NCBI RefSeq assembly: GCF_003790525.1
Contig: NZ_CP033632.1
DNA length: 64,000 nucleotides
From: Escherichia coli
Lineage (GTDB): Bacteria > Pseudomonadota > Gammaproteobacteria > Enterobacterales > Enterobacteriaceae
Strand: one strand, 5' to 3'
Each line of letters opens with the position of its first letter. Positions within the stretch are counted from its first letter, which is position 1. Positions 50,851-52,096 of this stretch are shown here, piece after piece. Below the pieces are notes generated by a model that did no database searches, was not told where the DNA came from, and saw only the letters and a program-made list of their open reading frames with translations. The position numbers and the translations under genes were made by a program.

Positions 50851-50880
50851 TTCCTGCCCTTAGTTACGTTTCCGCAGTCA

Positions 50881-50976
50881 TCAATCGATGAACTGACGGA
50901 TCAGTTCCAGAACTGCAATCAGCGCGTTTGCAAGCGCAGCTACCGCCCTCAGAACGATGATTAACAGGTTAATCAT
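50881..50976 (-). CDS. Small hydrophobic peptide, type I toxin-like (31 aa)
   Basis: Hand translation MINLLIIVLRAVAALANALIAVLELIRQFID; RBS GGAG upstream; paralog at 51537. Confidence 0.45.
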   Translation of the reverse strand: MINLLIIVLRAVAALANALIAVLELIRQFID

Positions 50977-51536
50977 CCGTTTTCTCCATAAATGGAGTAA
51001 AGACACCGTGGCTTGCTCTTACGCTGCCTGTCACCACGGCTTCTCTTCGTCTTGTCAGTTGTAGAGAGTCTCACTCCTACCAGAGCACAGATAACCAGCA
51101 CCACCTGTATTACCTGTCAGGACTTTGAAGCTGTTCATGCCGCATTTAGCGGAATGCAGGGAAAGACTCACCACAGCACTAACCCTCTGATTATACGTTT
51201 ATCTAACTTTCAAGCAAACCGTTAACGCGTAGTCACCGCCTGTCATATTGCATAATCAGGCTTCACGGATTATCATACTGTTGTCAGTTGTAGAGAGTTT
51301 CTCTTCCGGGCGAGTTACCAGCTCGTACCGGAACTGTAAAAAAGCCGACCTCACCAGTCGGTTTTTTTACGTCTGCAGTTTCCCGCTTCATTTAGATCTA
51401 TTTTAAATGAATAAATTTTCTGCGGCAAACCCAACGACGTTGGGTCGTTAGTGTAAATAATTGTTCAAAACTCATAAACACTCCTTTGTTAAAGGGCAGG
51501 AAGCGGTAAACGTCTCTCCCTTAGTTAAGCCATCAA

Positions 51537-51620
51537 TCACTCGATTAGTTTCTGAATGGCAATCAGCGCGTTTGCAATGGCGAGCACAGCCCTGAGAACG
51601 ATGATTAACAGATTCATCAT
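51537..51620 (-). CDS. Small hydrophobic peptide, type I toxin-like (27 aa), paralog
   Basis: Hand translation MMNLLIIVLRAVLAIANALIAIQKLIE. Confidence 0.45.
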   Translation of the reverse strand: MMNLLIIVLRAVLAIANALIAIQKLIE

Positions 51621-52096
51621 CCGTTTCTCTAGGTTGATACTGGAGGAAGTCACCGTAGCTTGCTCATACATCGCCTGTCACAACGGCTCTCTCACATTGT
51701 TGGATGTAGAGTACCTTCCCTCTACCAGAGCACTGAACACAGCACCACCCGTTTGTTCAGCCAGGACTTTAATTCGTTCATCCCCAGATAGCGCAGGGGT
51801 TAGAAGCAAGGGAGACACACTGTACAGCGCCAACACAAAGATTATACAGATGCATGCATAAAATTCATTTAAAGAAATTACCATTGACAGACAATCTGAA
51901 GTCAAACTAGACAACAGGTGTCTAGTGCCATAATACTATGAGTGTTGGGTGTAGAGTATCTTCCTCCAGTCAGAGCCACCAACTCAAGGCTGGAAAACAC
52001 AAAAAAGCCAAATTACCAGTCGGTTTTTTTTGTGCTTGTCGTTCAGCTGTACTTCCGTTTTTTCCCCCCTTCATTGAAGAAGTAGTAGGCAGAGCA

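Follow-up and report, generated by a model that had tools for sequence, protein, structure and literature searches.

Two tandem, diverged dqlB/agrB (DinQ-like) type I toxin-antitoxin modules, very probably a plasmid-addiction system, occupy positions 50831–52031 of the stretch of Escherichia coli DNA analysed here (64,000 nucleotides of contig NZ_CP033632.1, assembly GCF_003790525.1; hereafter the window). Module 1 is intact, and module 2 is apparently degenerate. An initial annotation, made from the sequence alone, had read the region as a type I toxin-antitoxin array; that interpretation is correct, with the proviso that the "array" is one intact module and one apparently degenerate one. The feature was already known, because the family has been named, modelled, annotated and experimentally validated, and it matters little as a discovery. 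The dql family was defined in 2016 (PMC5066626), close relatives are experimentally shown toxin/antitoxin addiction modules (PMC12317039, PMC12365149), and work from 2025 showed that dqlB/agrB contributes in a major way to the stability of carbapenemase plasmids (PMC12365149, PMC12317039). The case does illustrate that a reading of sequence without database searches can pick out type I modules that fall under the cutoffs of open reading frame (ORF) calling.

Family searches, which the initial annotation had proposed as a check, place both peptides above the threshold of the DqlB model and both small RNAs (sRNAs) above that of the AgrB model. Against the NCBIfam equivalog NF041473 ("DinQ-like type I toxin DqlB"; cutoff 35) the dqlB-1 product scores 72.2 bits (E = 2e-20) and that of dqlB-2 42.0 bits (E = 6e-11). 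Against Rfam RF02891 (AgrB; gathering score 40) the segment 51284–51370 scores 56.1 bits (E = 5e-8) and 51945–52032 scores 51.8 bits (E = 4e-7), both matches covering the full length of the model (positions 1–84). RefSeq labels identical DNA "dqlB (x2)", giving the dqlB-1 product as WP_000609146.1, "DinQ-like type I toxin DqlB". In a plasmid collection the identical 1.5 kb is found at ≥99% identity in 122 records, and related sequence in 2421 records. The peptides had also been likened to the TisB/DinQ/ZorO class, of which the DinQ part holds, given that NF041473 and RF02891 are passed, while the TisB and ZorO parts do not. The equivalog for DinQ itself, NF041472, is not passed (23.3 bits against a cutoff of 30 for dqlB-1, and no match for dqlB-2). 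A match to the OrzO-P family (RF02083) stays far short of the gathering score of 60, at 29.8 bits, and is confined to the terminator (model positions 45–76), and a protein-family search returns no TisB or ZorO match for either peptide at E <= 1; membership of ZorO/OrzO or TisB/IstR was rejected on these grounds.

The two modules share one layout, and as whole units they are spaced 644–662 bp apart in tandem. In each, a minus-strand toxin ORF lies at the 3′ end of an mRNA of about 355 nt with a structured 5′ untranslated region (UTR) of about 210 nt, and the plus strand encodes a divergent AgrB-like sRNA of 85–87 nt, which lies upstream of the toxin promoter at a distance of about 100 bp; the transcripts do not overlap (Table 1). 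Both of the mini-ORFs originally described, for hydrophobic peptides of 31 and 27 amino acids, are present, and a repeat finder recovers every duplicated flanking module that had been listed. Repeat D1 (TTGT..GTAGAG..CAGAGC), which holds the GTTGTAGAGAGT / CCAGAGCAC elements, occurs in four copies at 51052, 51281, 51697 and 51942; D2 is an 84-nt repeat over both ORFs (82% identical); D3 is a 61-nt block with CCTTTGTTAAAGGGCAGGAAGCGGT at 50806 and 51467; and D7 comprises the plus-strand terminators, one at 51339 and one at 52001. By virtue of the D1 direct repeat (20–35 nt) the 5′ end of the sRNA is complementary in trans to the 5′ UTR of the toxin mRNA. The suggestion that the plus-strand terminators end antisense RNAs therefore survives in the form of the AgrB-like sRNAs, but these have no cis overlap with the toxin genes, and pairing is in trans through the repeat.

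Table 1. Features of the two dqlB/agrB modules and of their surroundings (positions in the window; SD, Shine-Dalgarno sequence; aa, amino acids; +1, transcription start)
Feature	Position	Strand	Basis or remark
Module 1	50831–51368		toxin gene (-), sRNA (+)
dqlB-1 toxin coding sequence, 31 aa plus stop, MINLLIIVLRAVAALANALIAVLELIRQFID	50881–50976	-	ORF list, NF041473, RefSeq
SD hairpin of dqlB-1 mRNA, CUCCAUUUAUGGAG	50984–50997	-	homologous to dinQ 3:4 SD-sequestering hairpin (PMC5066626)
dqlB-1 5′ UTR, 207 nt	50977–51183	-	putative +1 at 51183, by homology to dinQ +1
dqlB-1 -10 box TATAAT	51190–51195	-	GTAT(A/G)AT kept in 6/6 aligned modules including K-12 dinQ
sRNA-1 target in dqlB-1 5′ UTR	51055–51086	-	equivalent to dinQ G88-A119, contains "sequence 2"
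dqlB-1 mRNA terminator hairpin (AAGGGCAGGAAGCGGT module)	50831–50861	-	12-bp perfect inverted repeat I2
AgrB-like sRNA-1	51284–51368	+	single-stranded 5′ seed, internal stem-loop, intrinsic terminator
Putative sRNA-1 promoter	51248–51276	+	-35 TTGCAT 51248–51253, 17-nt spacer, -10 TATCAT 51271–51276
Module 2	51492–52031		toxin gene (-), sRNA (+)
dqlB-2 toxin coding sequence variant, 27 aa plus stop, MMNLLIIVLRAVLAIANALIAIQKLIE	51537–51620	-	ORF list, NF041473
Mutated dqlB-2 SD, AGAG	51627–51630	-	GGAG in 11/11 other modules
dqlB-2 5′ UTR, 214 nt	51621–51834	-	putative +1 at 51834, by homology (alignment)
dqlB-2 -10 box TATAAT	51841–51846	-	
sRNA-2 target in dqlB-2 5′ UTR	51700–51731	-	repeat of sRNA-2 5′ end
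Degraded dqlB-2 mRNA terminator	51492–51522	-	one arm with 4 mutated positions versus module 1 and L005
AgrB-like sRNA-2, weakened terminator hairpin	51945–52031	+	RF02891, 51.8 bits
Putative sRNA-2 promoter	51908–51913 (-35 TAGACA); 51932–51937 (-10 AATACT)	+	promoter scan
59-aa hydrophobic ORF (MDFMSILGRCLLLPFPVAMFVGCLFPGIDDRF...)	50635–50814	-	directly after dqlB-1 terminator
IncX1 backbone remnant, ~2 kb	50293–52322		truncated resolvase, 59-aa ORF, both modules, IS1 fragment
IS26 copies flanking the remnant	49473–50292 and 52323–53142		
IS1 transposase C-terminal fragment	52097–52322		cut by right-hand IS26
Fusion ORF	50220–50519	+	IS26 end joined to C-terminus of truncated resolvase

The specificity of the pairing was assessed against dqlB loci from IncX3, IncX1, IncX4, IncI-gamma/K1, IncK2/Z and IncF plasmids in which the AgrB matches had been located, by means of seed-restricted duplexes and ungapped pair counts; full-length RNAduplex predictions over-extended and were uninformative. 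On its cognate target sRNA-1 forms a duplex of -40.6 kcal/mol, with 20 Watson-Crick and 2 G:U pairs in the first 24 nt, and sRNA-2 one of -46.1 kcal/mol, with 19 Watson-Crick and 3 G:U pairs. The crossed combinations give -27.1 kcal/mol for sRNA-1 on the module 2 target (13 Watson-Crick and 5 G:U) and -34.6 kcal/mol for sRNA-2 on the module 1 target (16 and 3). The target begins 78 nt from the start codon in module 1, 79 nt in module 2 and 75 nt in K-12, and across 13 sRNA-target pairs from 12 modules seed and UTR target co-vary, with target starts 72–79 nt from the start codon. Seeds differ by lineage, being TCAGTTGTAGAGAGT in module 1 and IncX3, TTAGATAAGAACTC in K-12, and otherwise TTGGATGTAGAGTA, TTAGGTGTAGAGTGAC, TCAGTTATAGGCAGTT or TTAGTTGAAAAGAGAC. 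The AgrB of pOXA-48 stops working when 4 nt are mismatched and works again after a compensatory change (PMC12365149). In K-12, dinQ is not repressed by agrA (PMC5066626), whose duplex on dinQ is -42.7 kcal/mol where that of agrB is -58.2 kcal/mol. From these results we infer that each of the window modules is specific for its own partner. The sRNAs pair preferentially with their own mRNAs, so that the pair is heterotypic.

In module 1 the GGAG-type ribosome-binding site that had been noted for both copies is confirmed, as a Shine-Dalgarno (SD) sequence at 50984–50987, 7 nt before the ATG, with a predicted probability of being unpaired of 0.01. The terminator hairpin of the dqlB-1 mRNA (-24.4 kcal/mol, z = -6.1) is homologous to the dinQ terminator, and the inferred start site follows from the dinQ +1, which we back-calculated on the K-12 sequence from the published SD numbering G184-G187 (PMC5066626). 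Folding of sRNA-1 gives -32.6 kcal/mol (z = -4.7), and its 3′ 39 nt alone give -16.4 kcal/mol, in agreement with the first of the two strong plus-strand terminators of the initial annotation. The putative sRNA-1 promoter was read directly from the sequence, as a simple consensus promoter scan did not list it; its -10 lies 7 nt before 51284, the same spacing to the +1 as for the -10 TAGTAT of K-12 agrB. Module 1 should be the working system.

Module 2 is the sole outlier among the 12 modules in its SD, in peptide length and motif, and in the energies of both the toxin and the sRNA terminators. Its SD is AGAG, and a neighbouring GGAGG belongs to the plus strand, the wrong one for dqlB-2, so that the claim of a GGAG-type site fails for this copy. 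Alignment with all relatives reveals deletions of 17 nt and 9 nt that shorten the C-terminus of the toxin, which has QKLIE where DinQ and all the other DqlB peptides in the comparison keep LELIR; among the 12 modules it is the sole 27-amino-acid peptide without that motif. The toxin terminator folds at -8.8 kcal/mol (z = -0.26) as against -24.4 kcal/mol in module 1, and in the 12-module comparison it is the weakest, at -12.3 kcal/mol versus -22 to -29 kcal/mol. The second plus-strand terminator, formerly described as strong, proves weak, the 3′ 39 nt of sRNA-2 giving -5.8 kcal/mol versus -11.7 to -19.5 kcal/mol in the other modules, and the fold of the whole sRNA has z = -1.3. With lesions in each of its functional elements, module 2 is probably decaying or much weakened. 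The putative -35 of sRNA-2 is overlapped by an inverted repeat with perfect 7-bp arms (CTAGACA-ACAGG-TGTCTAG, 51907–51925, plus strand). The IncX1 loci L005 and L013 keep the arms and have one base changed in the loop; the repeat is absent from module 1 and from IncX3. It could act as an operator or have a structural role.

The way in which the modules would act is carried over, by analogy, from dinQ/agrB and from the dqlB/agrB systems of pOXA-48 and IncX3. AgrB binds dinQ mRNA at G88-A119 ("sequence 2"), closes the SD hairpin and triggers cleavage by RNase III (PMC5066626). The window UTRs align with dinQ at 74% mean column identity, and the minimum free energy fold of module 1 contains both the SD hairpin and a long-range 5′ stem that corresponds to the 1:2 "lock" of dinQ. 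In this scheme the primary mRNA would be translationally inert, with its SD locked in the hairpin, until 5′ processing frees UTR element 2 to pair with element 3 and the SD opens. Binding of the sRNA to the element 2 region would keep the SD closed and expose the duplex to RNase III. On loss of the replicon the labile sRNA would disappear first, and the 31-amino-acid peptide would then be made, enter the inner membrane and kill the cell (post-segregational killing).

Several observations weigh against this account of a switch-controlled module beside a decaying copy. Folding did not reproduce the processing/sRNA SD switch, and it failed likewise for K-12 dinQ, whose switch has been demonstrated by experiment: the predicted probability that the dinQ SD is unpaired is 0.43 at full length and 0.35 for the +45 form, so the model misses known switch behaviour, speaks neither for nor against the switch in the window, and leaves this step to rest on homology and not on computation. 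The start sites, processing and sRNA instability supposed for the window modules are likewise taken over from relatives by homology. The cognate duplex of module 1, together with that of the IncX3 locus L003 (-41.4 kcal/mol), is the weakest among the modules compared. For its part, module 2 may still be working, since DinQ too has 27 amino acids and the family cutoff is passed; AGAG can function as an SD, if a weak one; and the 27-amino-acid allele is present in native conjugative IncX1 plasmids and in >100 records. The native IncX1 tandem L013 has the same AGAG and the same crippled module 2 toxin as the window, but both L013 and the single-module IncX1 locus L005 retain an intact GCCCGA/TCGGGT terminator stem in the sRNA. 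The window differs from L013 at 34 positions, 32 of which lie within 51657–52075, the half of module 2 comprising the 5′ UTR and the sRNA, and none within the 1040 bp (50615–51656) that cover module 1. This clustering suggests, from sequence comparison, that an allele of the sRNA-2 half was exchanged by recombination, and it favours such replacement over simple decay in place; that simple neutral decay alone explains how module 2 differs is accordingly doubtful.

A more generous view of module 2 grants full function to the two modules, as orthogonal addiction systems in which a toxin answers to its own sRNA only, with redundant post-segregational killing. All four gene products pass curated thresholds, cognate pairing is better than cross pairing by 11–19 kcal/mol, and DinQ provides a precedent for a 27-amino-acid toxin; the 27-amino-acid allele persists in native IncX1 plasmids, and heterotypic tandems recur in IncK2/Z and IncF plasmids, where both toxins have 31 amino acids. 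As module 2 alone has AGAG for GGAG and has lost LELIR, and as its toxin terminator is disrupted and its sRNA terminator in the window weak, we regard this as possible but somewhat unlikely. By analogy one might instead suppose that the module 2 toxin is dead and that its sRNA has been kept as an orphan antitoxin against the DqlB of competing IncX1-type plasmids, an anti-addiction element. The toxin is already crippled in L013, in which sRNA-2 is identical to the sRNA of L005, and the sRNA-2 of the window forms a stronger duplex on the L005 target (-56.0 kcal/mol) than on its own target (-46.1 kcal/mol). K-12 has an extra sRNA, agrA, which invites comparison, but the analogy does not show function because agrA fails to repress dinQ (PMC5066626); moreover, the terminator stem and the seed of the window sRNA-2 have themselves changed. 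We think an orphan antitoxin quite improbable. A broader conjecture would hold plasmid dqlB/agrB tandems to be always heterotypic (IncX1, IncK2/Z, IncF), the surviving IncX1 sRNA to be an anti-addiction element, and seed diversification to reflect an arms race between plasmid lineages; if true, the surviving IncX1 sRNA-2 would protect its host from killing by competing IncX1-type dqlB plasmids, although we would lend this idea little credence.

A role like that of chromosomal dinQ, as an SOS-induced membrane peptide that modulates recombination and the membrane potential once DNA has been damaged, and not as an addiction system, appears very improbable, notwithstanding the homology of the locus to dinQ and a LexA-box-like CTG-N10-CAG sequence (CTGTATTACCTGTCAG) at 51105–51120 (plus strand) in the dqlB-1 5′ UTR. 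For the dqlB of plasmid pTF2 a candidate SOS box was reported at the homologous position, but DqlB protein showed no change in that study (PMC12211044). This sequence is the only instance found, and it lies inside the UTR, about 65–80 nt downstream of the presumed dqlB-1 start, with CCG at the equivalent place in module 2. The dinQ LexA operator over the -10 box (CTGTATGATTATCCAG) is absent from both window promoters (ACGTATAATCAGAGGG and TCTGTATAATCTTTGT), and no CTG-N10-CAG LexA box lies over either; in view of this, LexA/SOS control was rejected. Relatives, in addition, behave as addiction modules. As for the ORFs and hairpins being chance features of non-coding plasmid DNA, the ORFs are indeed very short and under the usual gene-calling cutoffs, but the idea is refuted by the family E-values, the 2421 plasmid records and the co-variation of seed and target, and has practically nothing left to recommend it.

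Among known systems the closest to module 1 is the IncX3 locus L003 (p_dm694_NDM5, pOXA-484-type), which is 92.6–93.3% identical over 551–633 bp, has the same sRNA seed (TCAGTTGTAGAGAGT), target position, SD hairpin and promoters, and encodes a peptide that differs by one residue (V22 versus I22). IncX3 has a single module, whereas in the window a second, IncX1-type module adjoins, and the flanks are IS3000 and IncX3 backbone in the former and IncX1 backbone and IS26 in the latter. The IncX3 agrB-dqlB of pOXA-484 is toxic on induction, is rescued by agrB and stabilised a test plasmid (PMC12317039); all four cloning primers of that study map exactly onto L003, and one of the four maps exactly onto the window. 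The DqlB-agrB system of pOXA-48 (IncL) belongs to the same family and uses the same trans pairing to the 5′ UTR, but represents a different lineage with a single module; here the pairing was proven with mismatch and compensatory mutants, ghost cells and post-segregational killing were seen, and agrB alone rescued (PMC12365149).

The chromosomal dinQ-agrB/agrA locus of K-12 has the same gene order, strands and divergent non-overlapping sRNA as the window modules (PMC3567139, PMC5066626). In both, the sRNA opens with a direct repeat of the UTR stretch that starts 75–79 nt ahead of the start codon. Homology extends to the UTR blocks, the -10 box, the SD hairpin and the terminator, and the peptides share the signature IIVL...LELIR. 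DinQ, however, has 27 amino acids and a GTG start, whereas DqlB has 31 amino acids and an NCBIfam equivalog of its own; a LexA operator covers the promoter of dinQ but is missing from those of the window copies; and in K-12 the sRNA alone is duplicated (agrA and agrB, 231 bp apart) whereas in the window whole modules stand in tandem. The chromosomal dinQ is stress-related, while dqlB is plasmid-borne and acts in addiction. More distantly, zorO-orzO/zorP-orzP and tisB-istR-1 also have small alpha-helical inner-membrane toxins and a divergent upstream sRNA that pairs with the 5′ UTR, but zorO-orzO and tisB-istR-1 share no sequence-family membership with the window modules; zorO/zorP is also a tandem pair of diverged modules. 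The hok/sok system (parB of plasmid R1) similarly achieves addiction through a stable toxin mRNA, activated by processing, and a labile antisense RNA, but Sok is a cis antisense RNA overlapping the hok/mok leader, the activating processing occurs at the 3′ end and the peptide family is unrelated.

The two modules have different nearest relatives, module 1 being closest to IncX3 modules (~93%) and module 2 to IncX1 modules (~89%), and they are only ~73% identical to one another. They are thus a heterotypic pair and not a recent duplication, and simple duplication in place was rejected as their origin. The same tandem is carried by the native conjugative IncX1 plasmid pFORC_081_4 (L013). Tandem heterotypic dqlB modules seem to recur across plasmid groups. 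The IncK2/Z plasmid pMB5646_4 (L011, 453–1638) has two dqlB genes and sRNAs with different seed types, and the IncF plasmid pMRY16-002_1 (L012, 449–1677) has two dqlB genes beside the microcin J25 gene mcjA, with only one AgrB match reaching the Rfam threshold; the dqlB pairs in these two plasmids are spaced 680–730 bp apart.

In the window the pair lies within a remnant of IncX1 backbone enclosed by IS26, itself part of a multi-IS26 resistance region with mph(A) and oqxAB; 13 IS26 terminal repeats, corresponding to six complete copies plus one end, are found over the window. An intact addiction module of IncX origin is travelling in an IS26-bounded resistance region and could help to stabilise a multiresistance replicon. 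The backbone (15000–39999 checked) matches E. coli plasmids of ~92–100 kb at ~98.7% identity, which carry annotated Dam methylase, DnaB helicase, and phage tail and tape-measure proteins, and these matches are consistent with a P1-like phage-plasmid as host replicon. Within such a replicon the resistance region with the dqlB pair is an insertion. Sporadic dqlB genes have been recorded on IncY plasmids (PMC12365149).

Immediately beyond the dqlB-1 terminator is a 59-amino-acid ORF with a strong ribosome-binding site (AAGGAGGTG) and its own terminator (50646–50627), a RefSeq hypothetical protein (WP_000347021.1) with no Pfam or NCBIfam match. The protein adjoins dqlB in the IncX1 loci L005 and L013, and homologous DNA is present in the IncX4 locus L007, but it is absent from IncX3 and K-12. 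After dqlB-2 a remnant comprising the ribosome-binding site and first codons only remains at 51398–51475 (minus strand). As the dqlB terminator has no U-tract, the ORF might be co-transcribed with dqlB by read-through. It was nonetheless rejected as a part of the module, having no family and being absent from the IncX3 locus and K-12, and is better regarded as an IncX backbone neighbour.

Elsewhere in the window there are three tRNA genes (23712–23784, 23790–23862 and 25670–25742). A full-length Rfam match to the sok antitoxin at 7208–7382 (plus strand; 114.3 bits against a gathering score of 59) indicates that the window has a second, unrelated type I addiction system (hok/sok). In the resistance region, a full-length match to RNA-OUT, the antisense RNA of IS10/Tn10, is found at 45487–45556 (minus strand; 98.8 bits).

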